Assembly: GCA_039183635.1 (NCBI GenBank)
Contig: JBCDBL010000002.1
Location: 802-64,801 of the forward strand
DNA length: 64,000 nucleotides
From: Pseudomonadota bacterium
GTDB taxonomy: Bacteria; Pseudomonadota; Alphaproteobacteria; Caulobacterales; Parvularculaceae
Reading direction: 5' to 3'
Shown here one piece after another: positions 10,490 to 63,862 of the stretch. Position 1 is the stretch's first letter; each line of letters begins with the position of its first letter. The notes beneath the pieces are model-generated. The model was not told the origin of the DNA and ran no database searches. It was given only the letters and a program-made list of their open reading frames with translations. The position numbers and the translations under genes were made by a program.

Positions 10490-10632
10490 TTAATCCTCCC
10501 CGGTTAAGAAACATGCAACTCGTACTGTTTTATCAATGGTATGCGATCTTGCGTACGATTTCTATGTTTTCGAATACAATTTTGAGCAACGCCGCGATCC
10601 GAGACATTTTTGCAACGCACCGAATGGTGCAA

Positions 10633-11910: not shown

Positions 11911-11941
11911 GTTGCAAGACGATCCTTTAACCTGACTGAGC

Positions 11942-33110: not shown

Positions 33111-35450
33111 TCAACGCCACCGCTTTTGCAATGTCCGCCCAATCATCGCAAAAAACCAAACGGACAAAGCTCCCGTACCTAAGGTGCAAATAGCGACCCA
33201 AGCCGCGACTGCGCCGATCTTCGCCTCGACAGCGGCAAACGCCATAAAACACAGCGTCGCCGGCGCAGCCAGATAACCGACGAGAAAGGCTATAAAAGGC
33301 TGCAATACCAAGGCGCGATCCGCCCCGGCCTCTTGTATGACACGCTTTGGAACGCTGGAACGCGATAAACTGGCTATGATCCAGGGATAGACCGCTCTGT
33401 CGGCGGCGCGCCCGTCGGGCATAATCGCCGGCAGGAGAGAAAGATCCGACCATAGCCTTAGTACGAAGACATGGAAGTACATGAAAAAACTGAAAATCAG
33501 CACGGGGAAAATTGCGAAGAACTGTCCGACCGTGATCACCAAATTCAGCCATGGCAACGGACTGACTTTATCAAGGCGACTTGTTTGCTCAACAGCATCA
33601 GCCGCGTCTCCTGGGAAAGCGATATTGAATGTCACGATGCAGGCGAACGCCAAAAGCAGCCCCAAGACCAGGAACATTCTTTGCCCATGCCGCGATATGT
33701 TTTCGATGGACGCTCTGATATCATTCAGATCAAGCGTGTCGGGAAGGATGACCCCTGAAAGATTAAGTCCCGAAAAATCGTTCAGCGTCAAACCTGTCGA
33801 CTCATCAAAGTTTGCATAACTTATCGTTTTGGCGTCACGTATGTTGTTCACAGCGCCATTGAACTGCGCCTCGACAAAAGTCGCGCCCTTCAAATCAGAC
33901 CCCGCAAACGATACGCCGTCAAACTGGCTTTCGGAAAAATCGGCCGCTTCCTTCTTCTTTTCAGCCTCACTCTCGATAAAAGCGACGTTATGAAAATTGG
34001 TGTAGGCCACAATCATTTTTGAAAATTCAACGCCGTTGGCTTTGCCGCCCTCTATGATGGAGTAATGAAGCGAGCCGTCATGGAAGCGCGCGCCGTCAAA
34101 ATCGACCTTCTTGATGAATGTATCTATGATTTTGGGCGCATCGAATTGCACATCGGATGCATTGAACACTTTCAATTTGCAATTGGCTATAGAGAAGGAC
34201 GGCTCATTGCCAAGGGCCCTGTCCACAGGACCAAAGTAGGTAAAGGTCTCCTCCAAATAGCGGCTGACGGCATCATTTTTTTCTTTGTTTTTAGTTTCGG
34301 TCGTCGCACCCCGGCCGACCGGCCTGTTCGGCGACGCCAAAACCGTGGAGAATTTCTGGAAAACCGCCCAATCGAAATTCGTATTGAAAAATAAAAGGTT
34401 TCGTACCGTTCCGTAAAAGCTAAACCGCTTAATGTGTGAATCGTTGACGCGAAAATCACGCACAGCCGTGCCGCGTTCCAACGGCCCCGGATAAACATAA
34501 TCTCTTTCAAACCGCATTGTTCGAAACTTAGACCACCGAACATAAAACGAGTTGTATACTGTATTCTTACAGGAAAAGACGTAAACTTCCGACTGTGTAA
34601 AGTCCTCTAATTCTCCCTTTGTGGGGTAATACCTAAATTGAAAGTTATCATTGTCGTCTTTCACAAAACATCCTGGCTCGAACCAAATGTCTGCGACCAG
34701 GCTACTCCCGATATGAAACGTGTGTATAATCGCGCAATATATGTCGACAACATTTGTAACGTGGCAGTTAACGATGTGTAAATCGTGTGCAACAGGCCGC
34801 ACCATAATGCCGTTAGGCGTTTCGACTGTCGCTTTGACATCCTTATCAAAAAAATCATTATTGAACTCATCGGGATATATATCCGAGAGCGGTTTATCGA
34901 AGCGCCTCAGGATTTTAGATAACTGCGCATCGTCTTTAAACGCATTGGCCGGCAATATTGGCTTGAGCACCAACCAGCGAATTATACATTGGTCGAATGA
35001 CACTCTGTACAGCAGACAACCGAAAAAATCCAAACTATAGAATTCACACCGTACAAACCTGACATTTTTAACCGATGAACAAAGAAAAGATGCGTAATCG
35101 AACCGGCAATTTATAAAGTGGGCGCCCTCCAAGGAAACGCCGGTCAAACCTTCGTCGGACGCGTCGACAATATCTCGATCCTTAAATTCAATAATCTCGT
35201 CGCCGCTGCGATTTTCTAATTCAGCAATGACGTCGTCCCAACTCGTTTCCTGCCTATTTTCGTCTTGCGCATCAGGCAGGCCAACTCTTTCTGTCGTAAT
35301 TGGATCTACTTGAATATCTGCATAGCGCGCGCCGGTCCGCCCTTTACGGCGAATGGGCGTGTCAAAAAAACTTTGAGAAGGCGCAACGCCTCCCCCGCGC
35401 GCGCCGGAAAAAACATTTAAGAAACGCACTTTAGCCCCCACGTATCCCAA
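33111..35450 (-). CDS. Large pentapeptide-repeat protein with a C-terminal 5-6 TM domain
   Basis: Pentapeptide register with every fifth residue L/F in GVSLE GAHFI NCRFD YASFL CSSVK NVRFV RCEFY SLDFF, and again in FSESQ FDGVS FAGSD LKGAT FVEAQ FNGAV. Hydrophobic helices occupy the last roughly 190 aa. The first in-frame ATG codes for Met216, so the start (TTG 35450 or a downstream GTG/TTG) is uncertain. The repeat-encoding part is visibly AT-richer than its neighbours. Confidence 0.75.
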   Translation of the reverse strand: MGYVGAKVRFLNVFSGARGGGVAPSQSFFDTPIRRKGRTGARYADIQVDPITTERVGLPDAQDENRQETSWDDVIAELENRSGDEIIEFKDRDIVDASDEGLTGVSLEGAHFINCRFDYASFLCSSVKNVRFVRCEFYSLDFFGCLLYRVSFDQCIIRWLVLKPILPANAFKDDAQLSKILRRFDKPLSDIYPDEFNNDFFDKDVKATVETPNGIMVRPVAHDLHIVNCHVTNVVDIYCAIIHTFHIGSSLVADIWFEPGCFVKDDNDNFQFRYYPTKGELEDFTQSEVYVFSCKNTVYNSFYVRWSKFRTMRFERDYVYPGPLERGTAVRDFRVNDSHIKRFSFYGTVRNLLFFNTNFDWAVFQKFSTVLASPNRPVGRGATTETKNKEKNDAVSRYLEETFTYFGPVDRALGNEPSFSIANCKLKVFNASDVQFDAPKIIDTFIKKVDFDGARFHDGSLHYSIIEGGKANGVEFSKMIVAYTNFHNVAFIESEAEKKKEAADFSESQFDGVSFAGSDLKGATFVEAQFNGAVNNIRDAKTISYANFDESTGLTLNDFSGLNLSGVILPDTLDLNDIRASIENISRHGQRMFLVLGLLLAFACIVTFNIAFPGDAADAVEQTSRLDKVSPLPWLNLVITVGQFFAIFPVLIFSFFMYFHVFVLRLWSDLSLLPAIMPDGRAADRAVYPWIIASLSRSSVPKRVIQEAGADRALVLQPFIAFLVGYLAAPATLCFMAFAAVEAKIGAVAAWVAICTLGTGALSVWFFAMIGRTLQKRWR

Positions 35451-36211: not shown

Positions 36212-37438
36212 ATGTCATTAGCATCGACTACTGATGATCGCCTGCCTGTAACGGTTCTTTCGGGATTTCTCGGCGCCGGCAAAACGACTTTGCTAAATCG
36301 AGTCTTGAACAACCGGGATGGACGACGGGTCGCTGTAATTGTCAACGATATGTCTGAGGTCAACATAGACGCCGACCTTGTTCGGGCTGGCTCTGAGCTT
36401 AGTCGTACGGACGAAACCCTTGTAGAGATGTCGAACGGCTGCATCTGCTGTACGTTGCGGGATGATCTTCTTGCTGAGGTAAAACGTCTCGCCGCCGAAG
36501 GTCGATTCGATTATCTGTTGATTGAATCGACAGGAATTTCGGAGCCATTGCCTGTCGCAGCTACATTCGATTTCCGAACCGAGGACGGCGACAGCTTATC
36601 CGATGTCGCGCGCATCGACACGATGGTGACTGTCGTCGACGCCGTTAATCTTCTGAAGGATTTTTCAAGCCATGACTTCCTGCGCGACCGCGGCGAGGTT
36701 TTAGGCGATGAAGACGATCGTACGATCGTTCATCTGTTAACTGATCAGATTGAGTTTTCTGATATTGTCATCCTTAATAAAGTCGACGATGCGCGCCCCG
36801 AACAAGTGGACGCCGCCCGCAAGATCGTCCGCAGCTTGAACGCCGACGTTCGAATCATCGAAACAAACTATTCTGACGTCCCTGCCGACGCGATCCTCGA
36901 TACAGGGCTTTTCGATTTCGGAAAGGCGCATGAGCATCCGATGTGGGCGAAAGAACTATATGGCTTCGCCGACCATACGCCAGAGACGGAAGAGTATGGG
37001 GTTACATCCTACGTCTACCGCGCGCGTCGCCCGTTTCAGCCGGAGGCCATACATGCTCTGTTGAACGGCCCGTTGCCCGGCGTACTTCGCGCAAAAGGCC
37101 ATTTCTGGATGGCGACACGGCCGGATTGGGTCGTGGAATATTCACTGGCGGGCGCCCTGTCGAGCGTTGCGCCCCTCGGCTCGTGGTGGGCGAGCGTTCC
37201 CCGGGAAAAGTGGCCGGAGGGAGACGTCATCGATGCCTATATAGCGGACCGATGGCAAGAACCTTTTGGCGACCGCCGTCAGGAAATCGTTTTCATTGGC
37301 GCGGGAATTGATTGGCCGGCGCTTAAGACGAAGCTTGATTTAGCTTTGTTGCCAGACGGAGAAGATTATTCGGTAGACGCCGTTCCCAACTTGCCTGACC
37401 CGTTTCCGCTCTGGCGTAGGGGCGAGCCCGAGGCGTAA
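36212..37438 (+). CDS. COG0523 (CobW/ZigA/YjiA-type) G3E GTPase, putative zinc metallochaperone
   Basis: Walker [13 protein letters not shown], metal motif GCICCT and a C-terminal CobW_C-like domain. The ORF track starts at 36197. I prefer the ATG at 36212. Confidence 0.85.
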
Positions 37439-37466
37439 TCGCCTTATACGCGCAAAGGAACGGATT

Positions 37467-37832
37467 ATGAAAGCCACGGATTCAACACTGGATGCATCGG
37501 CGACCAGCCTGTCGGTCATGTGCCTGATCCATTGTTTGTTGTTGCCCGTTATCGCTGCAGTTCTTCCTCTTGCCGGCGTTTTAGCGGAGATGGAATGGAT
37601 CCATAAAGCATTAGCGCTGGCCGCCCTTCCAATCACGGCCCTGGCCATCGCGCGTCATCAGGCCGGCAAAATCAACTTTATCTTCATTCTACTCGCGGTG
37701 CTCGGTCTTTGCCTTTTACTCGCAGCCGGCTTTATCGAAGAACTTCACGACTTCGAAACGCAGCTGACGACAGTTGGCGCCATTTCCTTGGCTACAGCGC
37801 ATATCTGGCGCTGGATGAACCGCACGGCCTGA
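37467..37832 (+). CDS. MerC-domain-like small membrane protein (4 TM, Cys-x-x-His-Cys motif)
   Basis: 121-aa product. SVMCLIHCLLLPVIAAVLP, with cysteines inside TM1, resembles MerC-domain proteins. It lies in the same transcription direction, 28 nt after the COG0523 gene. Confidence 0.55.
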   Translation: MKATDSTLDASATSLSVMCLIHCLLLPVIAAVLPLAGVLAEMEWIHKALALAALPITALAIARHQAGKINFIFILLAVLGLCLLLAAGFIEELHDFETQLTTVGAISLATAHIWRWMNRTA

Positions 37833-37864
37833 CAAAACCTTTTGTGCGATAGGAAATCAAAGGC

Positions 37865-38482
37865 ATGCCCCCCCAGACAAGCGCCCGTCACGAACCAGCC
37901 CACCCTGTGCAAACGATCCATAAGCTGCAAGATCTCGATGCGATCTTTCATGATGAGACAGACGCCGTCATTTGGGAACGACCAACGCCCCCGTCGGTTC
38001 TGTCAGCATTGAATAATTTGCCTACACACCAAATTACAAATGGACGATTTTGCGTTCCGGCAAGCGCGGTTGGTCGCTGCGTTGCGGATACTTTCAACGC
38101 ATGGGGGTTTGATGCAGAAGATGCACGGCGATGGTTGATCGCTGATATCGAAACGCTGGCGCGCCACATGGCGCGCATTCTTTCATCTTCGAATCTTTTA
38201 ATTCGTATAGAGGTCGTACGCGATGACGCCTGCCGAAAATTTCATCGCGATACGGTCAAAGCGCGTCTCATTTGCACCTATAACGGTCCAGGAACGGAGT
38301 TTGGCGTTTCCAACGGCAACGGATGCGCCGATGACATAAAAAACGCGCCTACAGGCGGCCCCATCTTGCTGAAGGGCAAACTTTGGCCTGGATCTCCCAG
38401 CCAAACCGTCTTGCATCGCTCGCCTCCAATTGCAGGGGCAGACACATCGCGATTGGTCATCGTGCTTAATGAGGCATGTTGA
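37865..38482 (+). CDS. Conserved hypothetical protein, DUF1826-like
   Basis: 205-aa soluble product. The block FHRDTVKARLICTYNGPGTEF and the position after a COG0523 gene match my recollection of DUF1826. Unverified. Confidence 0.5.
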   Translation: MPPQTSARHEPAHPVQTIHKLQDLDAIFHDETDAVIWERPTPPSVLSALNNLPTHQITNGRFCVPASAVGRCVADTFNAWGFDAEDARRWLIADIETLARHMARILSSSNLLIRIEVVRDDACRKFHRDTVKARLICTYNGPGTEFGVSNGNGCADDIKNAPTGGPILLKGKLWPGSPSQTVLHRSPPIAGADTSRLVIVLNEAC

Positions 38483-38647
38483 AACAGCTGGTGCGCGATC
38501 AATTTTACACCTTGTATGACCATATACAGATGAACTGACCCGGCTTGCAAAAGACTTAAAGGGCGTTGATAATTTGTCGCTACAGCGCCTTGCAAGCGAT
38601 GCAGGTCAGGGACGGGTCACAGCCTTGCCCAAACAACGGCATGGAGC

Positions 38648-40564
38648 TTATGCGGCGGCTTTCAACGGCAGTGTAATTGAAAAACAGGTCCCTTCGCCAG
38701 GCGTAGAGCGAACATTCAGCTTGCCACCATGGTTGACTTCGACAATGCGCTGGCAGATGGCGAGGCCTTGACCCGTTCCTTTACCCGGCGGCTTGGTTGT
38801 AAAGAAAAGGTCGAAGACCTTTTCAAGCGTGTCCGGTGGAATGCCTGGGCCATTGTCGGCGACGGCGATCTCAACCGCCTCACCTATGTTCCTGGCGTCA
38901 ATTGAGATCCGTCCCTTCTCGCCCGTTTCCTGTTCTTCAATAGCGTCAGCCGCATTTACAATCAAATTGATCAAAACCTGGCTGAGCTTACCGGCGACGC
39001 ATGGCACTTCACTGAGATCGCCCTCAAAGCGGCTGTTCACATCGGCGCGCAACTTCCATTGATTGCGGGAAACTGCAATTGTGTTTTCGATCACCGCACG
39101 CAAATCCTGTACATTCATTTTATCAGCATCAGGATGTGCAAACTCCTTGATAGAACGTACGATATCGGCGACCGTCGTGACGCCAGCCTGGGCGGCTGAG
39201 ACTGCATCGGGCCATTCCTCGCGCACGAAGTCCCAATCCAGTTCGTCGAGTTTTTCACGCAGCACCTTTTCAACATTCTCTTTTTCAGATGTACACGCAT
39301 CAATCGTATCCTGGATATCAGCGAGCGCTTCGCCAAGGAAGCGCAGATTGTCGCCGACATATTGTATTGGCGTGTTGATCTCATGGGCGATGCCGCTCGC
39401 CATCGTACCAAGGGCTTCCATTTTTTGGGTTTGCAACAGCTCCAGTTCAAGTTGACGGTTGCGTTGCAGCGCATCGTAGAGCTCCGTTACATCCTGTTCG
39501 ACCACGACGACCCCCCCGTTGGACATGCGTTGCTGGGTCGTAATCATAACGCGGCCGTCTTCAAGACGTGTCCGCCAGCTTGGGTGGTTTTCAGCGTCTC
39601 GAAGGCGCTCCAGGCGATCCTCAAGCGCAAACGGCCTTGGCTCGCCGCCAACGTCCTCCATGGGCGCCAATGTGGCCGCCGCGATGTCGGCGAAGACAGG
39701 CGTTCCAACCATAACATGCGCCGCATCGGCATAGTGCGTTCTGAAGCTGTGGTTTATGAACGATACGTTTTGATCCGCATCGACGATCAAGACCCCTTGG
39801 GGCATGGAATCCATGGCGTCGTTTAAAACCGTTTCGGCATGGGCGCGGCCGTCTTCGGCGCGTTGGCGCGCTTCTTCTGCATTTCGGGCGAACTCGGCAA
39901 GTTCTGCGGACATACGGTTAAAAGACTTTGTGGTATCCGCAAGCTCATCACGGCCGTGGACGTCAAGTTGATAGCCAAACTCTCCGGACGCGACCCGCCG
40001 CGCGGCGTCCCGTAATTTGGCGAGCTGACGCGTCAGCACCGTGCCGAGAATCAACCCAAAGATCCCGACAATAAGAATTTCCGATCCCGCAATCGTCAAC
40101 ATCCACCGCTGCGCTTCGGCCAGCACCTTATCGAGGTGATCTGTAGACAATCCAATTTCGACATGACCAAAGGTTTCACCCGCCACCTCAATCGGGGCGG
40201 TCACGTCTAAGCGCTTGTCGTTTTCTGCATTTGCTATGGTTGCATCAGCCTCGAAAGCGGCTGCAAGCGCCTCCGGCGCGCCGCCCTCAGACATAACGAC
40301 GTCATTGGCGCTCAGCACGCGTATGTAAACAACACCTTCATTTTGAAGAGTTTGGGCGACAAGTGCATCAAGGGTGGCGAGATCCATCGACAAAACCGCA
40401 TCGCTCGTCATCGTCGCGATCAGACGCGCCGTGACATGCGCACGACTCAAAAGTTCGGTTTCGCTTGAGCTGCGCAAATAAAACAGACCACTGACCACAA
40501 GAATAGCAAGAAGCGAGACTTCTATGAGCGCTATCCCTAAAATCGTTTTTAGCCGGAATGACAT
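38648..40564 (-). CDS. Membrane sensor histidine kinase (2 TM + sensor loop, HAMP, PAS, HisKA, HATPase)
   Basis: H-box [14 protein letters not shown]-box [12 protein letters not shown]-boxes DNGPGI and GTGQGL. Two TM segments flank a loop of about 130 aa. No receiver domain and no adjacent response regulator. Confidence 0.85.
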
Positions 40565-41439
40565 ATCACATCACCGTCTTCAACGATTTCCGTATGATTA
40601 CGCTCAAGACCTAAAGCCCGCACATCGTCCCAATCCGCATCGACTGCAGAAACAATTCCACTCATGCCGAGGTCGGCTAAAAGCTCCGGCCGGCTGTCTG
40701 CCAGACCCGTCAAGCTGTCGGCGATCCGTGCAAGCTTGTCAGCTGCGACATCGGGATGTGCGGCGAAAGCATGGGGCGTATACCCACTTGTTCTATAAAT
40801 AATCTTGAGCGTGTCGCGAACATCCTTCGGAACGGTGTTGAAGGTGCGTACGACACCGCCGCCGGCTGGCAACAATCCAGCGCTGACCGCCCGGTAGACA
40901 GAATCGTGTGACTTTACATACTTCGGTGTAAAGTTAATGCCCTGGCTCTTCATTTCAGCACGCGGAATGATGCTGGCGCCAAACGCCGCCGGTGAGGGAA
41001 ACGCTATGGTTTCGCCACGCAAATCTTTCAAGGCGCCGATGTCAGCGTCTTGACGTACAACGATAAGCCCGCGCAGCTGCTTATCTTTTTGCTTTGCAAA
41101 TGCGCGGTAGCCCGGCGCATTATGAAACACTGAGTAGTGATAAGGGTTCATGTAAGCAATATCGTACGCGCCCTTTGCAAGACAGGCTTCAAAGGTTGGA
41201 ATATCTTTGGCGGTGACAAAGGTAAGAAGCTCTCCGGATTGTGCGCTTACTTCCTTTAGGAGGGGTGTCCAAACCTTGGCCAACCGCGTTGCGGATTGTT
41301 GCGGCACGATGCTTACGGTAAGACCTTCAGCGACAGCAGGCGCAGGTTTGGCGGCGCACAAAAAGAGTATGGCTGTCAAAAAAAGGACGGCCGTCTCTTT
41401 GTAACGAGGAGCGAAAATAGCGGCGTTTGCGACAAACAT
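40549..41439 (-). CDS. PhnD/SsuA-like periplasmic substrate-binding protein
   Basis: Signal-like N-terminus, then LTVSIVPQQSATRLAKVWTPLLKEVS...YDIAYMNPYHY, typical of phosphonate-type SBPs. 16-nt overlap with the kinase gene. No ABC permease or ATPase nearby. Confidence 0.75.
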   Translation of the reverse strand: MFVANAAIFAPRYKETAVLFLTAILFLCAAKPAPAVAEGLTVSIVPQQSATRLAKVWTPLLKEVSAQSGELLTFVTAKDIPTFEACLAKGAYDIAYMNPYHYSVFHNAPGYRAFAKQKDKQLRGLIVVRQDADIGALKDLRGETIAFPSPAAFGASIIPRAEMKSQGINFTPKYVKSHDSVYRAVSAGLLPAGGGVVRTFNTVPKDVRDTLKIIYRTSGYTPHAFAAHPDVAADKLARIADSLTGLADSRPELLADLGMSGIVSAVDADWDDVRALGLERNHTEIVEDGDVICHSG

Positions 41440-41639
41440 GGAAAGGGCCTCTTTTGTTTCTCAATATGGGACAAAAGTTAGCTCAGAAAGCCAACAAGCG
41501 CCGCCCCCATATGGGGAGAGTGAAGCGCAAAAGCAGTTACCCCTTCGTAAATATTGCACCTTTGAAAATCCCCGCCCCTTGCCGCCGCCCGGCCCAATCA
41601 GGCTTTGGTGATAACAGCCCGAGGAGGCTTTGATACAAG

Positions 41640-41810
41640 GACCTCCGGCGGTTCTGGGCATCCAGAATAATAAGGAAGTTGGTGCGAGGCCAACGCTGTT
41701 CCCGCAACTGTATTTGGCGAGCCGGCGATCAAGCCACTGGAGGTATCCGGGAAGGCGATTGCGAGAAAGGCGACGACCCATAAGTCAGGAGACTTGCCGC
41801 CTACGTCGTC
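41640..41810 (+). promoter_or_regulatory. Cobalamin (B12) riboswitch aptamer
   Basis: The core AAGGAAGTTGGTGCGAGGCCAACGCTGTTCCCGCAACTGTA matches the conserved AGGGAA..GGTG..CCG..GCTG.CCCGCAACTGTA pattern. GCCACTGG...CCGGGAAGGC is present. B12 box AGTCAGGAGACTTGCC at 41783-41798. Closing helix GGCGG (41647) / CCGCC (41797). Boundaries are approximate. Confidence 0.8.
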
Positions 41811-41912
41811 CGCACTTGCGACCGGGACAGTCGTAGGCGCCGGAAAACCGTTGAGACGACCTCATTATTCACGCCGGACGTTCTGAACGTGCGGATAGAA
41901 AGGGCTGTCGAA

Positions 41913-43511
41913 ATGGTCGCTGTCAGAACTTTTTGTGTCATCCTGACGATGATTTTGGGGGCGAACGCGGCGTTTGCTGAAAGCCTGTTCGGCATTGTTT
42001 CTGAACGCAACTCAGCCACAGCCGCGGCGGCGGCCAAACAATTCAAAGACGCCTATCCTGAAGCGGATATCTCCCTCCGCACCCCAAGGCAGGTAAGTCT
42101 GCTTACCGATGCGGACGTTATCGCAAAAATTCGTCAGTCAGATGTCTTTTTTGTCGCCGGCGTTTTCAGCGATGACGCCGATCGACTTCAAAGGCTGGTT
42201 GAGACCTCCGGGAAGACGGACAACATCTATATTGTCAGCTCGACGCAAGGGCTGATTTCGCTCTCGCGAAACAGAGACGGCGCCCCGCTCGCCATCGACC
42301 CGGCGACGTCGGGAGAAACAGTGGCCGACGGCGGTGGCTGGCGGTCAGCGAATGACTACTGGCAGGCGCGGGGCGTCGCCAACATCGCCAATCTGTTTGC
42401 CGCCTTGCTTTATCCGGACCGCATGAACGAGATAGCGGCGCCGGTCCCCCTCGCCCCGGTTCGCTTTGCTGAGCGTATAGGACAGCCAGGGGCGCCGACC
42501 ATCGCTTTGGTGGATTATGAAACCGGCGACCAAGCCGGCAATGCTGACCTGCATGACCGTCTTTGCGAGGAATTGGTTGCAACAGGTCTGGCGTGCCAGT
42601 CGGTTTTTGCCGGTTGGGGCGCCGCCAGCGCCGATGCGTTGGAACACCTCAGTGATATGAATGTTTCCGGCATAGTCCTTCTTCAAGACTTCGCCATCGG
42701 CGATAGCTTCCTGGGCCGCGCCAGCAATTTGTACGGTCTGGTCGATAACAATGACGCGTTCGACTATCTGGGCGGTTTGAACCTGGCTGTGGAATCTGTC
42801 CGTGGGCGGGCGTCTAAAGGATATGTTGTTGATGTAAGCGATCCCGACAATCCCGAGACCTCGCCGCTCGCCAGTGCGATTGTGCAGGAGTTGCGGGCGC
42901 GTCAGTTGAACCCAAACTGGATCAAATCCTTGATGCCTCACGGATATGCCGGCGCCCGGACCATGAACGTCGCATTCTTTGAAAATCTCTGGGGGTGGGA
43001 AGCAACGGACCCGGAGCTGTTTCCCGATGAGATTTGGGAGGATGCAAAAGACATCTACATTGACGACCGCTACGCGCTGGGGCTGGAGGCGTTTTTCGAT
43101 GAGGCCAACAACAAGCCTGTCAAAGCCAACATTCTGGCCATCATGCTCGTGGCGGCGCACAAGGGGTATTGGCGAGCCGACGCTGAAACTATCACCAAAT
43201 TGGCCGAGAAATTTGCCGCCGCTGTGATCGAAGCAGGGCTGCCAGGCAGCGGTCATACACGCCCGGATCATCCCATGCTGGACTGGCTCGGCGATGTTCT
43301 GCCCGAAGAAACAAGCGCAAAGTTGACGGACGTGCGCAACGCCGCGCGCGGACCTGTAATGCCTGAGGCGGCGGCGCCGGAAACGATTAGGGAATTGCAG
43401 GCACGCGAGTCCTCGCCCAACGCTTCCACCCGGTCTTCCTGGTGGACCCTTATTCCCGCGTTCTTGCTTGTGGGGGTTGGCGTTTTCTTAGGGAGAAGAT
43501 CGCAAGTATGA
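41913..43511 (+). CDS. Exported, membrane-anchored CobN/Mg-chelatase-homologous protein of reduced size
   Basis: Signal peptide MVAVRTFCVILTMILGANAAFA. The C-terminal block NPNWIKSLMPHGYAGARTMNVAFFENLWGWEATD...AIMLVAAHKGYW parallels the conserved CobN/ChlH C-terminus (NP.W...HGY.GA...W.AT). LYGLVDNNDAFDYLGG is another CobN-like block. The terminal TM segment is WWTLIPAFLLVGVGVFLG. The ORF track starts at GTG 41889. Confidence 0.75.
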   Translation: MVAVRTFCVILTMILGANAAFAESLFGIVSERNSATAAAAAKQFKDAYPEADISLRTPRQVSLLTDADVIAKIRQSDVFFVAGVFSDDADRLQRLVETSGKTDNIYIVSSTQGLISLSRNRDGAPLAIDPATSGETVADGGGWRSANDYWQARGVANIANLFAALLYPDRMNEIAAPVPLAPVRFAERIGQPGAPTIALVDYETGDQAGNADLHDRLCEELVATGLACQSVFAGWGAASADALEHLSDMNVSGIVLLQDFAIGDSFLGRASNLYGLVDNNDAFDYLGGLNLAVESVRGRASKGYVVDVSDPDNPETSPLASAIVQELRARQLNPNWIKSLMPHGYAGARTMNVAFFENLWGWEATDPELFPDEIWEDAKDIYIDDRYALGLEAFFDEANNKPVKANILAIMLVAAHKGYWRADAETITKLAEKFAAAVIEAGLPGSGHTRPDHPMLDWLGDVLPEETSAKLTDVRNAARGPVMPEAAAPETIRELQARESSPNASTRSSWWTLIPAFLLVGVGVFLGRRSQV

Positions 43512-43945
43512 GTAACCTATCGTTTGTTCTGCATACGCTGGTTGATGCGCTGTTGTGGCCGGTGATCGCCGCTTTGCTCATCTTGACCTGTGGGATTGCG
43601 ATTGAAATCGGAGTCGCTATCGGTGAGCGGCTCGGCGGCGTTCAAAAGTTCAAAGCGCTGGGTTTTGACCGCCTCAATGACCTTGCGCGGCGACGAATCG
43701 GGCGTGTTGACGTCATTGCGCGCATAAGTCCGATATTGGGCCTCATGGGTACGCTCATACCTTTAGGGCCCGGCATCGCGGCGATGGGAAACGGCGATTT
43801 TGCAACGCTTGCATCGGCTATAACCACGGCGTTCGACACAACGGTGCTCGGACTGTTTGTCGGCGTTCTCGCCATGCTGATCGGTCGTTTTCGGCGCGGC
43901 GCTTATGATGCAGCTTTAACCGAACTCGAGAGTTCGAATGCGTGA
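43508..43945 (+). CDS. MotA/TolQ/ExbB-family proton-channel-like protein (minimal, 3 TM)
   Basis: ATGA overlap with the CobN-like stop. LGLMGTLIPLG and AFDTTVLGLFVGVLAMLIG match the ExbB/TolQ C-terminal signature (GLLGTV.G ... T..GL.VA.P). Confidence 0.7.
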   Translation: MSNLSFVLHTLVDALLWPVIAALLILTCGIAIEIGVAIGERLGGVQKFKALGFDRLNDLARRRIGRVDVIARISPILGLMGTLIPLGPGIAAMGNGDFATLASAITTAFDTTVLGLFVGVLAMLIGRFRRGAYDAALTELESSNA

Positions 43946-44213
43946 TTTCAGCTCAACCCGTTTCGACAGCGACGCCCATGCGGCCGATGTCGGGCATCTG
44001 CCCAACCTGATGGACTTGATGCTCGTCTTCGCCGTTGGCCTCATCGCCGCGCTGGCGAGCTTCGACAGGCGTCCCATTGTGATCGAGGATGCACAAGCGG
44101 GCCCCGAATTGCCGGAGACGCCCGCGTCTGCGGACGCTGACGGGGAAGGCCTGGAAGCCGTCGGGCAAGTTTATCGTGATCCGGAAACAGGTAAGCTGTA
44201 TATCATAAAGTAA
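43938..44213 (+). CDS. Small single-TM protein, ExbD-like topology (DUF2149-like)
   Basis: 8-nt overlap with the ExbB-like gene. 91-aa product with TM segment LMDLMLVFAVGLIAALASF and the tail VYRDPETGKLYII. The family call is from memory. Confidence 0.5.
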   Translation: MRDFSSTRFDSDAHAADVGHLPNLMDLMLVFAVGLIAALASFDRRPIVIEDAQAGPELPETPASADADGEGLEAVGQVYRDPETGKLYIIK

Positions 44214-44319
44214 GCTGTGCGCGACCAACGCCTGGCCCCTGTGCGCTTGCACGGGAGGGAGGTCTTGGGCCAAGCTGCGTCACGGTTGCGACAAGAGTAC
44301 AAACACGCCGAGGCCAACT

Positions 44320-45891
44320 TTGAAACTTCAATTCCTCACGATCCTATCCGCTTGCAGCATGCTTTTATCGACGGCGCACGCCCAAATCCTGTACCGGGGG
44401 AATGACGGCGACCCGGAAACCCTCGACCATCACGGGACCGCGACCGTCGCCGAGGGAAGGTTGTTGGATGACCTTTATTCAGGATTGGTGGACTTCTCCG
44501 CGCGCGCCACGGTCACGCCGGGCGTCGCAGAACGGTGGGATATTTCCGATGATGGGCTAACCTATGTTTTTTATCTCAGAGAGGATGCAGCGTGGTCGAA
44601 CGGCGACCCTGTCACAGCCCACGACTTTGCGTTCGCTTATCGGCGGCTGATGGACCCGCTCACCAACGCCAAATACGCCATCATTCTTTATCCGATAAAA
44701 AACGCCGAGAAAGTCAATTCTGGCGTGTTGGACCCGTCCGAGTTAGGCGTGAGAGCGATTGATGAGCGGACGCTCGAGATCACTCTTGAACAGCCCACCC
44801 CCTATTTTCTGGATCAGTTGACCCACCAAACGGGTAAGCCCCTTCACCAAAAGTCAGTTGAAGCGTTTGGCGACCAATTCGTGAAGCCGGGCAACCTGGT
44901 GACGAATGGCGCATACGTCCTTCAGTCATTTACACTGAACGATCGTATCATCATGCGGAAAAACGAGTATTTCTACGATGCCGACAACGTCGCTATTGAG
45001 GAGGTGCACTATATTCCGTTTGAGGATCGCTCAACCTGCGTGCGGGCGTGGGAAGCAGGGGAAGTCCATATCTGCTCCGATCTGCCCGCCCAGGACCTTG
45101 AGCGGCTTGAGCAATATGGCGCCTCGCTGAAGATCGAACCTTATCTCGGCACCTATTACTATGCGCTCGACACAACGGATGAATTTTTATCCGATCCGGA
45201 GGTCCGGTTGGCCATGTCCATGGTGATCGACCGGGAGTTTCTGGCCGAAGAAATCTGGCCCGGCATGATTCCGGCGACGAGCTTTGTTCCCGTCGGCATC
45301 AACAATTACGAAGGCGGATCACCAAAGACGGACTATTTCCTAATGTCGATGCTGGACCGGGAAGATGAAGCCGCCGCGATCATGGCGCGAAAGGGCGTCA
45401 CGAAGGAAAACCCGGTGACCGTTGAGTTGATGTACAATAGCGGCGAGAACCACAAAAATACAGCAACCGCCATCGCCGATATGTGGTCTCACATCGGGAT
45501 CAACATAACCTACAAGATCCGAGATGCAGCGGCGCACTATGCGTACTTACGGGATCGGGGGCGGATGCAGGTCGCCCGCGCAGGTTGGGTCGGCGACTAT
45601 TCAGATCCGCAAAATTTTCTCTTTGGCCTTGAGTCCCATAATGTGGGCTTCAACTATGCAAAGTATGAAAACCCCGAGTATGACGCGCTGATGGTGCGCG
45701 CCGCCAATGAATTGGACCTTGTGAAACGTGCGGATATCTTGCGCCAGGCCGAGGCTATTGTGATGCGGGACACGCCCTTCCTCAGCATTTTCTACTATTC
45801 GTCTTTTGGGCTGGTGTCGCCTAAGGTGCGCGGGTGGGAAAGCAATGTTATGAACAAACATCTGACCCGTTATCTTACGCTGGAAGAATAA
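44320..45891 (+). CDS. ABC transporter substrate-binding protein, family 5 (OppA/DppA/MppA/NikA type)
   Basis: TTG start. Signal peptide MKLQFLTILSACSMLLSTAHA. VTPGVAERWDISDDGLTYVFYLREDAAWSNGDPVTAHDF is typical of peptide-binding family 5 SBPs. Confidence 0.85.
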   Translation: MKLQFLTILSACSMLLSTAHAQILYRGNDGDPETLDHHGTATVAEGRLLDDLYSGLVDFSARATVTPGVAERWDISDDGLTYVFYLREDAAWSNGDPVTAHDFAFAYRRLMDPLTNAKYAIILYPIKNAEKVNSGVLDPSELGVRAIDERTLEITLEQPTPYFLDQLTHQTGKPLHQKSVEAFGDQFVKPGNLVTNGAYVLQSFTLNDRIIMRKNEYFYDADNVAIEEVHYIPFEDRSTCVRAWEAGEVHICSDLPAQDLERLEQYGASLKIEPYLGTYYYALDTTDEFLSDPEVRLAMSMVIDREFLAEEIWPGMIPATSFVPVGINNYEGGSPKTDYFLMSMLDREDEAAAIMARKGVTKENPVTVELMYNSGENHKNTATAIADMWSHIGINITYKIRDAAAHYAYLRDRGRMQVARAGWVGDYSDPQNFLFGLESHNVGFNYAKYENPEYDALMVRAANELDLVKRADILRQAEAIVMRDTPFLSIFYYSSFGLVSPKVRGWESNVMNKHLTRYLTLEE

Positions 45892-45943
45892 TCCACATGA
45901 CTTTTAAAACATGCGAGCGCCAGGCCGTTCGGCAGAGGGGCCT

Positions 45944-46861
45944 ATGCTCAATTACACGTTGAAACGGGTGCTCACGATCATCCCGACGCTTTTCGTCATC
46001 ATCACATTGACGTTCTTTCTAATGCGGGTGGCGCCGGGAGGGCCATTCGATGAAGAGCGCCCTCTGGCGCCCGCAGTCCTTGAAAACATCCGGGCGAGCT
46101 ACGGGCTCGACAAACCGTTGGTCGAGCAGTACTGGACCTATATGGGGAACCTGCTGAAGGGCGATCTTGGTCCATCGTTCGTGTACAGAGACAAACGCGT
46201 TCACGAAGTCCTTGGCGAGGGCCTGCCGATCTCCATGACGCTTGGCGCAACAGCGCTCACGATCGCGCTGATTATAGGCGTACTTCTGGGGACGATCGCC
46301 GCACTCAACCAGAACAAGGGCGCCGACTACGCCATTGTAACGTTTGCGACCTTTGGCATCACCATACCGAACTATGTCCTCGCGCCCATCCTTACTCTGA
46401 TTTTAGCCCTCACATTTAACCTATTGCCGGCGACGGGATGGGGAACTCCGTCTCAAATGGTTCTGCCTGTTCTCTCCCTCGCCTTGCCGCAGGTCGCGAT
46501 TATCACGCGCCTGATGCGCGGCTCTATGCTGGAGGCGTTGAAGTCCGACCATGTCAGAACAGCACGGGCCTACGGGTTGCCGCTCACAAAAGTTGTCGGC
46601 AAGCACGCGTTGCGCTCGGCCTTCATTCCGGTCTTAACATATCTCGGCCCCGCGGCGGCGGCGCTGTTGACCGGTTCAATTGTCGTGGAGCAGATTTTCA
46701 ATATTCCCGGTATTGGCCGCTATTTTGTCTCAAGCGCCCTCAACCGCGACTACACGATGGTGATGGGCACAGTCGTCATCGTCGCGACTTTTGTCTTGAT
46801 CTTCAATCTCATCATCGATCTGCTTTATTCCGTCCTCGATCCACGGGTGCGATATGAATAG
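45944..46861 (+). CDS. Peptide ABC transporter permease (DppB/OppB-like)
   Basis: N-terminus MLNYTLKRVL. Conserved loop SDHVRTARAYGL. 6 TM segments. Confidence 0.85.
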   Translation: MLNYTLKRVLTIIPTLFVIITLTFFLMRVAPGGPFDEERPLAPAVLENIRASYGLDKPLVEQYWTYMGNLLKGDLGPSFVYRDKRVHEVLGEGLPISMTLGATALTIALIIGVLLGTIAALNQNKGADYAIVTFATFGITIPNYVLAPILTLILALTFNLLPATGWGTPSQMVLPVLSLALPQVAIITRLMRGSMLEALKSDHVRTARAYGLPLTKVVGKHALRSAFIPVLTYLGPAAAALLTGSIVVEQIFNIPGIGRYFVSSALNRDYTMVMGTVVIVATFVLIFNLIIDLLYSVLDPRVRYE

Positions 46862-47984
46862 TCGATCCGACGCTATGGAAGCCGCCCCCGAGAGCCGGTC
46901 GCTTCTCGACACGGCGTTCCTGCGCCTGAAGCGGAATCGCGCGGCGATGGTCTCCATATGGGTCGTCATCGCCATGACTCTTGCCGCGATTGTCGGCCCA
47001 TGGATTTCGCCGCACCCTTATAACGAGGTGTACAATAATTTCGTGGGCGCGAAGCCTTCCCTCACCGCCTATCCGAAAGACAATCAGATTGTCCCGATCG
47101 CTGAACGGGCGCTGAAGCGCGCACGGGTAAACGTTGAGACGATCGATGCATCACATGACCGGGTTGAGATTGACATCGTCAATCGTATTGATGAGCCGCT
47201 CGATCCACGGATTACAAGATATCTCGTCCGCTCTGACGTGTTTGAAAATGTCGAGATGTCAATCAATGCGGCGGACGCCACCCGGGCCCGCATGACGGCC
47301 GATGTGAAAAAGCTTTATTTTCTCATGGGGACCGACCAAAACGGCCGTGATCTTCTGACCCGTATTTTGATTTCCCTACGAATATCGCTTCTGGTCGCCG
47401 CACTCGCCACGGGGGTGGCGCTGTTAATTGGCGTCACTTACGGGTCCATCGCCGGTTTTATCGGCGGGCAGGTCGACAATCTCATGATGCGGGTCGTGGA
47501 TCTGTTGTATTCGCTTCCCTTCGTCTTCTTTGTCATTTTATTGGTCGTCTTCTTCGGCAACAATATCGTCCTGATATTTATCGCCATCGGTGCCATCGAA
47601 TGGCTCGATATGGCGCGGATCGTCCGGGGGCAGACCCTTCAGCTCAAGCAGAAGGAGTTCGTGCAAGCCGCCCAGGCGCTCGGCGTGAGCAAACTGGATA
47701 TGATCAAACGCCACATTGTCCCGAATGTTGCAGGGACAGTGGCCATATATATGACGCTTCTGATCCCCAAAGTGATCTTGCTCGAAAGCTTCCTCAGCTT
47801 TCTGGGTCTCGGGGTCCAAGAACCGCTGACCTCGCTGGGCGTGCTGATCGCCGAAGGCGCGCGCTATATGCGGAACGACCCTTACATGTTGATTTTTCCG
47901 GCGCTGACGATGTCCATACTCCTGTTCGCCCTCAATTTCCTGGGCGACGGGTTGCGTGACGCGCTGGACCCGAAGGATCGATAA
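46854..47984 (+). CDS. Peptide ABC transporter permease (DppC/OppC-like) with a long periplasmic loop
   Basis: 8-nt overlap with the previous gene. Loop KEFVQAAQALGVS. C-terminal LGDGLRDALDP. Confidence 0.85.
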   Translation: MNSRSDAMEAAPESRSLLDTAFLRLKRNRAAMVSIWVVIAMTLAAIVGPWISPHPYNEVYNNFVGAKPSLTAYPKDNQIVPIAERALKRARVNVETIDASHDRVEIDIVNRIDEPLDPRITRYLVRSDVFENVEMSINAADATRARMTADVKKLYFLMGTDQNGRDLLTRILISLRISLLVAALATGVALLIGVTYGSIAGFIGGQVDNLMMRVVDLLYSLPFVFFVILLVVFFGNNIVLIFIAIGAIEWLDMARIVRGQTLQLKQKEFVQAAQALGVSKLDMIKRHIVPNVAGTVAIYMTLLIPKVILLESFLSFLGLGVQEPLTSLGVLIAEGARYMRNDPYMLIFPALTMSILLFALNFLGDGLRDALDPKDR

Positions 47985-47985
47985 G

Positions 47986-49632
47986 ATGAGCACCGTGACG
48001 CCGCCTCAACCCGTTTTGGACATTGAGGACCTGAAGGTCGATTTCGAGACGCCCGACGGCGCCGTCCACGCCGTTAAGGGGATGTCGATGTCGGTCGCCC
48101 CCGGAGAGGTGGTCGCCATTGTTGGCGAAAGCGGCTCCGGCAAGAGCCAGATCGCCATGTCGACCCTTGGCATCCTTGCCTCCAACGGCCGCGCATCGGG
48201 CAAGATCCGATTCCAGGGGCGCGATCTTCTCGGCCTCTCCCGACGCCAAATGAACGAAATACGCGGCGCCAGAATCTCTATGATCTTTCAGGAGCCGATG
48301 ACGTCCCTGGACCCGCTCTATCATGTCGGCGATCAAATCATTGAACTGCTGATGACCCATAAGGGACTGGCGAAATCAGAGGCGAAGTCAAAAGCGCTGG
48401 ACCTTCTCAAACGGGTTCAGATCCCCGAACCGGAGCGCCGTATGCGGTCATACCCCACGGAATTGTCCGGCGGACAACGCCAGCGCGTGATGATTGCGAT
48501 GGCGCTCGCGAATGAGCCGGAACTCCTCATCGCAGACGAGCCGACGACGGCGCTCGACGTAACGACGCAAGCCGGCATCCTCCAGCTTCTCGCCGCGCTC
48601 AACCGCGACTTGGGCATGAGCATCGTTTTTATCACCCACGACCTTGGCATCGTCGAAGCCTTTGCAGACCGGGTCTACGTCATGCAGAGGGGGGAGCTGA
48701 AAGAGACCGGGAAGACCAGCAAGGTTTTTAAAAGTCCGGAGACAGCGTATACGCAAAGTCTCCTTGCGGCAGAACCGGAAGGCGCCAAGCCGCCCGTCGA
48801 TGACAACGCAGATGTTATTCTTGATGCGAAGAGTATCGAAGTCGTCTACGGAAATGGACCGGGGTTTCTTCGGAAAGACACCCGCTTTAAGGCGGTCAAA
48901 GGCGTTAGCCTCAATCTGCGGGAAGGCCAGACCGTCGGTCTTGTGGGGGAAAGCGGATCGGGAAAATCAACGCTCGGCCGCGCCCTGTTAAGGTTGACGG
49001 AAAGCACCGGAAGGATCGCCTATCTCGGGAACGACCTGCAAAGCCTGTCTCCCGGCGACATGAAGCCTTTACGCAAGGAACTTCAAATGGTCTTCCAGGA
49101 TCCGTATGGGTCTCTCTCCCCGAGGATGACGGTTCTCGACATTGTTGAGGAAGGTTTGCGAACCCACGCGCCGCACTTGGCGAAAAAGGACCGCGACGCC
49201 CAAGCCCTGGACGCGCTTGAAAAGGTCGGCCTCGATGCCTCGGTCAAAAACCGGTTTCCCCATGAGTTCTCAGGGGGGCAACGTCAACGGATCGCCATCG
49301 CCCGGGCCATGCTGCTGAAACCCCGCGTCGTTGTTCTGGACGAGCCAACATCGGCGCTTGACCGGACCGTCCAAAAAGAGGTGGCTCAACTCCTACGCGA
49401 TCTGCAGTCAGAGTTTTCATTGTCATACGTTTTCATCAGCCACGATCTGGCGGTTGTACGCGCCATGGCTGACTATGTGATGGTTATGCGCGAGGGGACA
49501 ATTGTCGAAGAGGGCGTAACACAGAAAGTTTTTGATACCCCTCGGGAGGATTATACCCGAAATTTGATAAAAAGCTCTTTTAACCTCAAGGACCTTCTGG
49601 GGGCGAAGACGGACGTACAGACAAACGCGTAA
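47986..49632 (+). CDS. Fused double ATPase of a peptide ABC transporter (DppD-DppF-like)
   Basis: Two Walker A motifs (GESGSGKS twice) and two signature motifs (LSGGQRQR, FSGGQRQR). Confidence 0.9.
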   Translation: MSTVTPPQPVLDIEDLKVDFETPDGAVHAVKGMSMSVAPGEVVAIVGESGSGKSQIAMSTLGILASNGRASGKIRFQGRDLLGLSRRQMNEIRGARISMIFQEPMTSLDPLYHVGDQIIELLMTHKGLAKSEAKSKALDLLKRVQIPEPERRMRSYPTELSGGQRQRVMIAMALANEPELLIADEPTTALDVTTQAGILQLLAALNRDLGMSIVFITHDLGIVEAFADRVYVMQRGELKETGKTSKVFKSPETAYTQSLLAAEPEGAKPPVDDNADVILDAKSIEVVYGNGPGFLRKDTRFKAVKGVSLNLREGQTVGLVGESGSGKSTLGRALLRLTESTGRIAYLGNDLQSLSPGDMKPLRKELQMVFQDPYGSLSPRMTVLDIVEEGLRTHAPHLAKKDRDAQALDALEKVGLDASVKNRFPHEFSGGQRQRIAIARAMLLKPRVVVLDEPTSALDRTVQKEVAQLLRDLQSEFSLSYVFISHDLAVVRAMADYVMVMREGTIVEEGVTQKVFDTPREDYTRNLIKSSFNLKDLLGAKTDVQTNA

Positions 49633-55441: not shown

Positions 55442-55842
55442 CGCGTCACTCATATGTTCTCGTCTCGACAATCGCCCGATACGCGCGCGCTCCGATTGTC
55501 CTTCCGCAAAGTTCTGTTTTTGCAAAACAATCGTGAACGGCATGCCCGGACATTAAGCGCTTTGGAAACTCGTGATTATTTTACAACAGCTTTTTGGTTA
55601 GATCTTAGCGGGGAATTGCGCACCGCTTAAAAAGTGTTCTATCATACGAGTATGGCTAACTTGGAACATAACCAAGTCATTGGACGCTGTTCCGTCGACT
55701 ACCAACTCAGCGAGTGGTTCGACGAGTGATCCCTGCGCCGGGGCAACAGCGCCGGCGGTCACCCCTATGATGTGAGCCCGCGCTGCGGCCTCGGCCTATC
55801 AAATTAAACACAATGTTTAATCTGTCAGGCAGGGGAAAAGCC

Positions 55843-63785: not shown

Positions 63786-63862
63786 TGGCGCACCGGGGAG
63801 GATTCGAACCCCCGACCCCCAGATTCGTAGTCTGGTGCTCTATCCAGCTGAGCTACCGGTGC
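63786..63862 (-). tRNA. tRNA-Arg (anticodon ACG), CCA encoded
   Basis: The reverse complement reads GCACCGGTAGCTCAGCTGGATAGAGCACCAGACTACGAATCTGGGGGTCGGGGGTTCGAATCCTCCCCGGTGCGCCA. It forms a cloverleaf with anticodon loop CTACGAA and is near-identical in layout to E. coli tRNA-Arg(ACG). Confidence 0.95.

Follow-up and report, generated by a model that had tools for sequence, protein, structure and literature searches.

A cobalamin-riboswitch-controlled BtuS/Hmu-like operon with a probably inactivated CobN-like gene in an uncultured Pseudomonadota bacterium

Introduction

Does a B12-controlled operon that appears to encode a minimal, exported CobN-like protein together with two small membrane proteins represent a new design, or is it an altered member of a system that is already known? 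This question is raised by a locus in a stretch of 64,000 nucleotides (nt), hereafter called the window, from an uncultured Pseudomonadota bacterium (Alphaproteobacteria; Caulobacterales; Parvularculaceae; GenBank assembly GCA_039183635.1, contig JBCDBL010000002.1, positions 802 to 64,801 of the forward strand). A preliminary description, made from the sequence alone, had pointed out a B12 riboswitch in front of three overlapping open reading frames (ORFs), here termed ORF1 (CobN homologue with a signal peptide), ORF2 (ExbB-like channel) and ORF3 (DUF2149/ExbD-like protein). It had suggested a proton-motive-force-coupled periplasmic module for the acquisition or remodelling of corrinoids or cobalt. 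The analysis reported here indicates that the operon belongs to a known type and that its CobN-like gene is probably broken by a large in-frame deletion.

The same protein families are encoded by the hmuYRSTUV operon of Porphyromonas, Prevotella and Bacteroides, in which HmuS is the CobN-like protein, HmuU the MotA/TolQ/ExbB-type protein and HmuV the DUF2149 protein, next to HmuT (PMC11681262; PMC10434189). HmuS is a haem dechelatase that removes iron, as established by genetics, biochemistry and cryo-electron microscopy (PMC12583661). According to prediction, a helix at each terminus fixes it to the inner membrane on the periplasmic side (PMC12583661). Its residue His-538 is essential (an H538A exchange abolishes dechelation), and a tetrapyrrole binds where head and neck meet, at a distance from the catalytic cavity (PMC12583661). 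For HmuT, HmuU and HmuV, the roles continue to be described as unclear (PMC12094164). A third type of CobN relative, BtuS, was named by Rodionov et al. (2003) and is described (as quoted in PMC6460266) as B12-regulated and predicted to act in metalloporphyrin salvage. In Bacteroides fragilis a cobalamin riboswitch lies in front of Hmu-like operons (PMC10100974), and PA1922-PA1925 of Pseudomonas aeruginosa encode a TonB-dependent receptor, a CobN-like protein, an ExbB/D-like protein and a small hypothetical protein (PMC4542158). This kind of system is therefore already known, and the earlier statement that such a module had not been described does not hold, since exported and anchored CobN-like proteins are represented among these examples. 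For the proteobacterial riboswitch-controlled trio, the literature search retrieved no experimental study.

Results

The Trio Is a Conserved Unit Under a Cobalamin Riboswitch

The Rfam scan of the 64-kb window returned two matches only, one tRNA and one cobalamin riboswitch (RF00174). The latter scores 107.2 bits (E 7e-26; gathering score 31.5) and spans model positions 1-189 of 189, which is the full aptamer including the B12 box. It ends 97 nt before the ATG of ORF1, whereby the ATG at 41913 and not the GTG at 41889 was taken as the start codon because it aligns with the starts of the closest relatives. Orthologous aptamers are located 95-160 nt upstream of the CobN-like gene in these relatives, and in a family covariance model the window riboswitch scores on par with theirs. 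The stop codon of ORF1 and the start codon of ORF2 share the sequence ATGA at 43508-43511, and ORF2 and ORF3 overlap by 8 nt at 43938-43945. Pfam searches assigned ORF1 to CobN-Mg_chel (PF02514; 154.7 bits, cutoff 24.5), ORF2 to MotA_ExbB (43.8 bits, cutoff 22.9, model positions 39-126 of 127) and ORF3 to DUF2149 (28.3 bits, barely over the cutoff of 27.1). The position of the riboswitch about 100 nt upstream of the trio, both gene overlaps and the three family memberships are thus as the preliminary description had given them.

In order to place the operon among its relatives, one genome per species was scanned for relatives of the C-terminal half of ORF1, and the 80 best loci were examined. 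Such relatives occur in at least 486 species-representative genomes. Carriers among the Alpha- and Gammaproteobacteria include Eilatimonas, Croceicoccus, Novosphingobium, Pseudomonas, Azotobacter, Azomonas, Methylophaga, Allohahella, Halioglobus, Endozoicomonas, Thalassotalea and Vibrio, and further carriers were found in the Myxococcota, Acidobacteriota, Pirellulaceae and Opitutae. Of the 73 loci whose downstream sequence was long enough, 70 have the ExbB-like and the DUF2149 gene directly behind the CobN-like gene. Rfam recognised a riboswitch immediately upstream in 10 of 14 loci tested. A family covariance model built from 14 riboswitch sequences, including that of the window, was then applied to all 80 loci; for 43 of the 70 loci whose 5' end is complete it detected a riboswitch at an upstream distance of no more than 600 nt (95-160 nt in most cases), and for six more it placed one farther upstream on the same strand. 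The neighbours of the related loci are mainly corrinoid uptake and salvage genes. Recurrent uptake genes encode TonB-dependent (BtuB-type) receptors and BtuC/D/F-type parts of ATP-binding cassette (ABC) transporters, and recurrent salvage genes encode CobQ, CbiB, a CobC/D aminotransferase, CobU, CobO, a CobB-like amidase, CbiZ, CobT and a BluB-like nitroreductase. A TonB-dependent receptor gene is present within 10 kb in 24 of the 80 loci; in eight of these, L002 among them, it is the immediate neighbour on the same strand. The checks that could have refuted the preliminary description, namely the RF00174 match, the family matches and the conservation of the trio, thus all speak for a real, conserved, B12-linked unit.

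Some of the related loci show peculiarities of their own. Allohahella sp. A8 carries the whole btuB/btuF/cobQ/CobN-like/ExbB-like/DUF2149 region in two copies (L044 and L045; NZ_CP172312.1, 1472060-1492800 and 1508269-1529009). These are separated by ~36 kb and share 100% identity over 20,741 nt, representing either a very recent large duplication or an assembly duplication. In a metagenome-assembled genome of the Myxococcota (L079), three cobalamin riboswitches are located on one strand within less than 8 kb (6210-6434, 11513-11706 and 13902-14085), one before the CobN-like trio and two after it. In Pseudomonas taeanensis (L034), a sucC RNA motif (RF01759, 75.5 bits) at 3400-3467, ~3 kb upstream of the riboswitch, is unrelated to the operon.

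The CobN-Like Gene Has Lost About 832 Codons in Frame

The product of ORF1 comprises 532 amino acids (aa) versus 1181-1479 aa (median 1426) in 70 full-length relatives, and it covers the CobN-Mg_chel model only at both ends (positions about 2-141 and 938-1090). ORF1 consists of the N-terminal 263 aa of the full-length form, fused in frame to its C-terminal ~270 aa. Residues 1-272 of the homologue P0008 align gap-free to ORF1 1-272 and are followed by more than 630 further residues; in dozens of other homologues only the last ~270 residues align, namely to ORF1 262-532. In every complete related locus both halves belong to one ORF and lie ~830 residues apart. At the DNA level, window 41669-42702 corresponds to positions 6480-7505 of the related locus L003, and window 42695-44199 to positions 10000-11504. 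The breakpoints could be located to the codon: relatives read …GAC TTC GCC ATC GGC/GGC AGC… on the left and …ATC AGC/GAT AGT TTT CTA GGG… on the right (the slash marks the breakpoint), and the window reads …ATC GGC GAT AGC TTC CTG GGC… at the joint. Relative to loci L001-L005, the loss amounts to about 2,496 nt or 832 codons, in frame and between imperfect 7-nt repeats (ATCRGCG). The designation "CobN homologue" of the preliminary description is correct at the level of the superfamily, but the deletion within the 532-aa protein had been overlooked.

The missing part contains most of what is conserved in the family. Out of 399 alignment columns conserved to at least 90%, 289 (72%) fall within the deleted segment. 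The intact relative L002 aligns along its body to HmuS (E 3e-94), CobN 7C6O (E 3e-91) and ChlH (E 1e-82), and the essential His-538 of HmuS (HFGTHGSLEF) aligns to a conserved His of L002 (HLGRHSTYEF), which lies inside the deleted segment. According to the domain scheme of HmuS, domains III and IV are missing completely, together with most of domain II and the beginning of domain V, so that the central cavity cannot form. On the N-terminal side, ORF1 retains the predicted signal peptide, the head and the first stretch of the neck; its C-terminal part begins exactly at the domain V motif LVDNNDAFDYLGG and comprises the end of that domain, domain VI and the C-terminal anchor. These data suggest that the window copy of the CobN-like gene is probably broken. 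Since the deletion removes the catalytic cavity, it is unlikely that the local module performs chelatase or dechelatase chemistry.

What is left of the gene is well preserved. All 26 retained conserved positions of the N-terminal part and 83 of 84 in the C-terminal part are kept; because these positions, the gene overlaps and the riboswitch score are intact, either the event is recent or the remnant is under selection. The ORF1 protein is a singleton among 5.8 billion protein clusters, and its short architecture was seen neither elsewhere among these clusters nor among the 486 genome matches. Two candidates for a further short form were rejected, since P0002 is a contig-edge fragment and P0039 is one half of a frameshift-split gene. 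The CobN-like gene of L084 (2371-6464), a contig from long reads in ENA, is broken up into an ORF of 887 aa and an overlapping one of 487 aa; a nearby TonB-dependent receptor gene is split as well, probably by frameshift errors. Fragments of this kind inflate the count of "short CobN" entries in protein databases.

ORF1 is not CobN proper: its best NCBIfam score is 157.9 bits versus a CobN equivalog cutoff of 1619, and its best match among solved structures is HmuS (PDB 9d26, E 1.9e-22). The automated label "cobaltochelatase subunit CobN" is thus doubly misleading, as it gives the wrong subfamily and conceals that the catalytic core is absent. ORF1 starts with a signal-like segment (MVAVRTFCVILTMILGANAAFA, followed by ES) within a hydrophobic stretch of aa 1-26, and hydropathy analysis places a transmembrane (TM) segment close to its C-terminus. 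Both terminal hydrophobic segments are shared with relatives, so the product is predicted to be exported and membrane-anchored, in agreement with the envelope location that had been proposed before. Within the N-terminal part, aa 33-119 match the chelatase N-terminal domain DUF3479 and aa 148-261 the first ~140 positions of the CobN model. On the basis of these matches, which recur in 9 and 21 of 39 family members, respectively, this part was taken as the head and the start of the neck. Searching for homologues of the N-terminal 263 aa retrieved two proteins only, too few for a modelling alignment, a profile of this part gave no meaningful match to PDB sequences, and an AlphaFold2 model of the 532-aa protein, calculated without an alignment, was unusable (mean predicted local distance difference test score 38.8).

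The retained domain V motif differs from that of HmuS in one residue of interest. The position of the HmuS metal ligand His-1209 is occupied by an invariant Asp in the B12-regulated family (DNNDA[FY]DY in L001-L080), and M. tuberculosis CobN likewise has Asp there (DSDDYFQYHGG). This Asp may reflect a metal or substrate specificity other than that of the haem dechelatase HmuS.

The Deletion Joint Recurs in a Second Assembly

Two relevant contigs come from the Logan assembly of run SRR22824305, for which another assembler was used at k=31. Contig L082 matches window 36925-42743 with 6 mismatches and spans the joint by 42 nt, and contig L081 matches window 42714-48565 with 5 mismatches; together they differ from the window by 11 single nucleotide polymorphisms over 11.6 kb. 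As L082 crosses the joint and stems from a separate assembly, the joint is independently reproduced. Nor can the 7-nt microhomology have misled a k-mer assembler, as it is far shorter than any assembler k-mer. When JGI metagenomes were scanned for exact matches, neither the joint nor adjacent sequence was hit (0 matches each); the lineage is absent there, which makes these scans uninformative on the deletion.

The Two Small Proteins Resemble a Stator-Type Pair

ORF2 contains three hydrophobic segments and ORF3 one. In an alignment of 37 sequences, the ExbB-like family shows the invariant motifs GLMGTLIPLGP and AFDTT..GL as well as conserved Thr- and Gly-rich motifs, and its profile matches MotA (6ysl, E 1.3e-4) and TolQ structures over TM2-TM3. 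On sequence grounds, ORF2 genuinely belongs to the MotA/TolQ/ExbB family and is unusually short for it at 145 aa; it shares the TM2-TM3 core of ExbB-ExbD, TolQ-TolR and MotA-MotB systems, whereas stator proteins have ~230-290 aa. In 38 DUF2149 sequences, Asp26 is invariant at the start of the single TM helix (NL.D.MLVF; NLMDLMLVF in ORF3), as is a C-terminal VG.V..D..TGKL motif, and only ~50 residues follow the TM helix. ORF3 thus resembles ExbD in being single-pass with an Asp near the TM start, like ExbD Asp25, but it lacks a periplasmic domain of the ExbD, TolR or OmpA-like kind, and the nearby genes do not include one for a TonB, TolA or peptidoglycan-binding partner. An hhalign comparison of DUF2149 with E. 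coli ExbD aligned the TM helix only, with Asp26 opposite Asp25, at a probability of 2.8%. DUF2149 can therefore be said to resemble an Asp-bearing stator partner by analogy, while its homology to ExbD is not established by sequence. Accordingly, the "ExbD-like" label for ORF3 stands with respect to the single TM helix and the invariant Asp and fails with respect to sequence homology to ExbD, TolR or MotB.

Organisation of the Operon and Its Surroundings

The features of the operon are compiled in Table 1.

Table 1. Features of the riboswitch-controlled operon in window coordinates (a slash marks the point of predicted cleavage or of junction).
Feature	Position	Strand	Basis
Cobalamin riboswitch aptamer	41632..41815	+	RF00174, 107.2 bits, full model; orthologous aptamers in relatives
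Leader/expression platform	41816..41912	+	between aptamer and ORF1 ATG
ORF1, BtuS/HmuS-type exported (predicted) CobN-like gene with internal in-frame deletion, 532 aa	41913..43511	+	Pfam, PDB match, collinearity
Predicted Sec signal peptide (aa 1-22, AFA/E) or N-terminal anchor	41913..41978	+	sequence, hydropathy; also in P0008
Deletion joint, Gly263/Asp264, nt 42701/42702	42699..42704	+	DNA alignment, codon-level breakpoints, Logan contig L082
Retained domain V motif LVDNNDAFDYLGG (= HmuS LSLDH1209xxEFMGG)	42738..42776	+	alignment to HmuS and M. tuberculosis CobN; invariant in family
Predicted C-terminal TM anchor, aa 508-527, then RRSQV	43434..43493	+	hydropathy; kept in relatives
ORF2, short MotA/TolQ/ExbB-family protein, HmuU-like, 145 aa	43508..43945	+	Pfam MotA_ExbB, 43.8 bits
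ORF3, DUF2149 protein, HmuV-like, 91 aa	43938..44213	+	Pfam DUF2149, 28.3 bits

Upstream, ORF1 is flanked by genes for a PhnD-like binding protein and a histidine kinase, and downstream the operon is followed by an Opp-type ABC system; these flanking genes are unrelated to the operon. As the preliminary description had noted, no gene for a TonB-dependent receptor, BtuFCD, CobS/T or ChlI/D adjoins the trio, and no AAA+ gene was found among its neighbours. An exact-protein look-up gave no record for P0001 or the PhnD-like neighbour, and records for the histidine kinase and the DUF2149 protein. Two TonB-dependent receptor genes are located in the window at 8072-10489 (minus strand) and 55813-58662 (plus strand), the first 31 kb upstream of the operon and the second 12 kb downstream of it. 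Neither has a neighbouring riboswitch, and the receptor at 8072-10489 shows at most 37% identity, in partial alignments, to receptors of related loci. In L002, the closest intact relative on a long contig, a gene for a 755-aa TonB-dependent receptor (11651-13918) lies 135 nt 3' of the DUF2149 gene on the same strand. In the window this position is taken by an OppA-like gene, and the local operon therefore also lacks the receptor of its relative. Elsewhere in the window, a 779-aa protein with pentapeptide-repeat regions is encoded at 33114-35450 (minus strand), and the sole tRNA of the window, tRNA-Arg(ACG), at 63786-63862 (minus strand).

Discussion

The closest described counterpart of the window operon is found in the hmu operons (P. 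gingivalis PG1553, PG1555 and PG1556; B. thetaiotaomicron HmuS, PDB 9D26), which contain the same three families in the same order, so that the hmu parallel drawn in the preliminary description is correct and reaches further than stated there (PMC11681262). HmuS is like the CobN-like protein of the window in its predicted export and terminal-helix anchors and in the lack of an AAA+ partner. The hmu operon, however, is iron-regulated, handles haem and includes HmuY, HmuR and HmuT, whereas the window operon has a B12 riboswitch and none of these three; HmuS carries His-1209 where the window family has Asp, and the window gene in addition lacks domains III and IV. With the BtuS proteins, as described in PMC6460266, the window family shares the relationship to CobN, a position outside the CobN and ChlH groups and B12 regulation; BtuS is described there in Bacteroidota, where BtuS1/2 mutants alter haem-iron use, whereas the window trio is proteobacterial. 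PA1922-PA1925, which resembles the window operon in its described gene content, is Zur-repressed and induced by zinc starvation and not B12-controlled (PMC4542158). The class I chelatases CobNST and ChlHID belong to the same superfamily, and CobN likewise has Asp in the domain V motif. CobN, however, is cytoplasmic, has neither signal peptide nor anchors and uses the AAA+ proteins CobS/T and ATP, whereas the window protein has a predicted signal peptide and a predicted TM anchor.

Taken together, the evidence places the window operon among the B12-riboswitch-controlled operons of the BtuS/Hmu-like type, and its CobN-like gene is probably a recent loss-of-function allele whose remnant would still be expressed in dependence on B12. 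When adenosylcobalamin is plentiful, its binding to the riboswitch would shut the operon, probably by blocking the initiation of translation. Translational control is favoured over other modes because no terminator was found and because the 3' B12-box segment is complementary to the Shine-Dalgarno region in relatives and, more weakly, in the window; this complementarity is the sole conserved long-range feature of the leader. In intact relatives, by analogy to HmuS, the periplasmic CobN-like protein may handle a corrinoid or another cobalt tetrapyrrole by metal exchange, metal removal or handing on of the ligand, and the ExbB-like/DUF2149 pair might supply proton-motive energy via its membrane-embedded Asp instead of the AAA+ proteins CobS/T. 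In the window the enzyme part would no longer be workable, while the locus would still be transcribed and translated under B12 control.

Several points weigh against parts of this interpretation. With regard to the expression platform, the search 3' of the window aptamer yielded no intrinsic terminator, the leader folds no better than shuffled sequences (z -1.0), and the complementarity of B12 box and Shine-Dalgarno region shows no covariation across relatives. With regard to the energy source, the dechelation by HmuS in vitro requires NADH and neither ATP nor a membrane potential, and the published hmu model has HmuU/V energise the outer-membrane receptor HmuR (PMC12583661). The DUF2149 profile gave no match to ExbD, TolR or MotB in the PDB; as DUF2149 is without detectable homology to these proteins, the stator analogy rests on ORF2 and one TM Asp. 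That the family acts on corrinoids is proposed by analogy with HmuS, and its reaction could run in either direction. An open, undecayed truncated ORF also fits a retained function. Finally, the joint was assessed on assembled contigs. The two Logan contigs overlap by exactly 30 nt (k-1; window 42714-42743), which indicates that the assembly graph branches 12 nt right of the joint. A coexisting intact allele behind this break was rejected as the simplest reading, because such an allele would be expected to join the graph no further right than 42702 and to break the left contig as well, yet that contig is continuous. It is likelier that the branch arises from 31-mers shared across species in the most conserved motif of the family (GRASNLYGLVDNND).

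This branch bears on the explanation that the deletion is an assembly artefact and that the true gene is of normal size, with about 1,380 codons. The source is a metagenome-assembled genome, and the community holds many related species with a CobN-like gene (L001-L022), which together with the branch so close to the joint speaks for an artefact. The identical joint in two different assemblies, the 42 nt by which the k=31 contig reaches across it, a microhomology of only ~7 nt, the in-frame junction between collinear parts of one gene and the plausible origin of the branch in cross-species 31-mers make an artefact very improbable. If the deletion is taken as real, the 532-aa protein could still be a functional, naturally minimised CobN-like module that works with the ExbB-like/DUF2149 pair in corrinoid or cobalt acquisition, with the head domain kept as a ligand-binding unit along with domain VI and the anchor. 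This would agree with the open, in-frame ORF with all but one of its retained conserved positions, with the intact translational coupling and riboswitch, and with the location of the HmuS tetrapyrrole site off the catalytic cavity (PMC12583661). Yet half of that head/neck site has gone with most of the neck, as have the catalytic His and 72% of the conserved positions; the architecture is unique among the clusters and genome matches searched, where the other short candidates proved to be a fragment at a contig edge and a gene split by a frameshift, and an absence of decay is expected after any recent deletion. We therefore consider a minimised module improbable and retain the reading as a recent loss-of-function allele.

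At the level of the family, two views of the ExbB-like/DUF2149 pair have to be weighed. The pair may energise a TonB-dependent corrinoid receptor and not the CobN-like protein, as in the published models for hmu (PMC12583661) and PA1922-25 (PMC4542158). The loci with a directly adjacent receptor gene on the same strand, among them the close relative L002, and those in which the receptor gene stands between the riboswitch and the CobN-like gene (including L009 and L011) are in line with this view. However, 56 of the 80 loci have no receptor in the fetched flanks, whereas 70 of 73 keep the pair beside the CobN-like gene; no TonB-like gene occurs among the recurrent neighbours, and the ~50 residues of DUF2149 past the TM helix match no ExbD-type domain. 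An energised receptor as the general role of the pair thus appears doubtful, and the retention of the pair in 70 of 73 loci, compared to 24 of 80 for a receptor, favours the CobN-like protein as its partner. In its strongest form, this would make the intact trio a self-contained, proton-motive-force-driven periplasmic corrinoid chelatase or dechelatase, in which a MotA/ExbB-type 5:2 motor replaces the AAA+ proteins CobS/T. We regard this specific proposal as unlikely. If it were true, cobalt would be stripped from or loaded into scavenged corrinoids outside the cytoplasm, and the window allele would be a natural domain deletion of such a machine.

What is new here is a damaged family member from an uncultured Pseudomonadota bacterium. 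It is a cautionary example, since an apparent "minimal exported CobN" turns out to be, most probably, a deletion remnant and not a new design. The family itself, a B12-regulated exported CobN-like protein with a stator-like partner, is present in at least 486 species, including culturable Azotobacter, Pseudomonas, Novosphingobium, Methylophaga and Eilatimonas. After the demonstration in 2025 that HmuS removes iron, it can be asked whether the B12-regulated relatives treat cobalt corrinoids likewise and what powers them, and the survey supplies culturable carriers and specific residues for mutation with which this question may be addressed.

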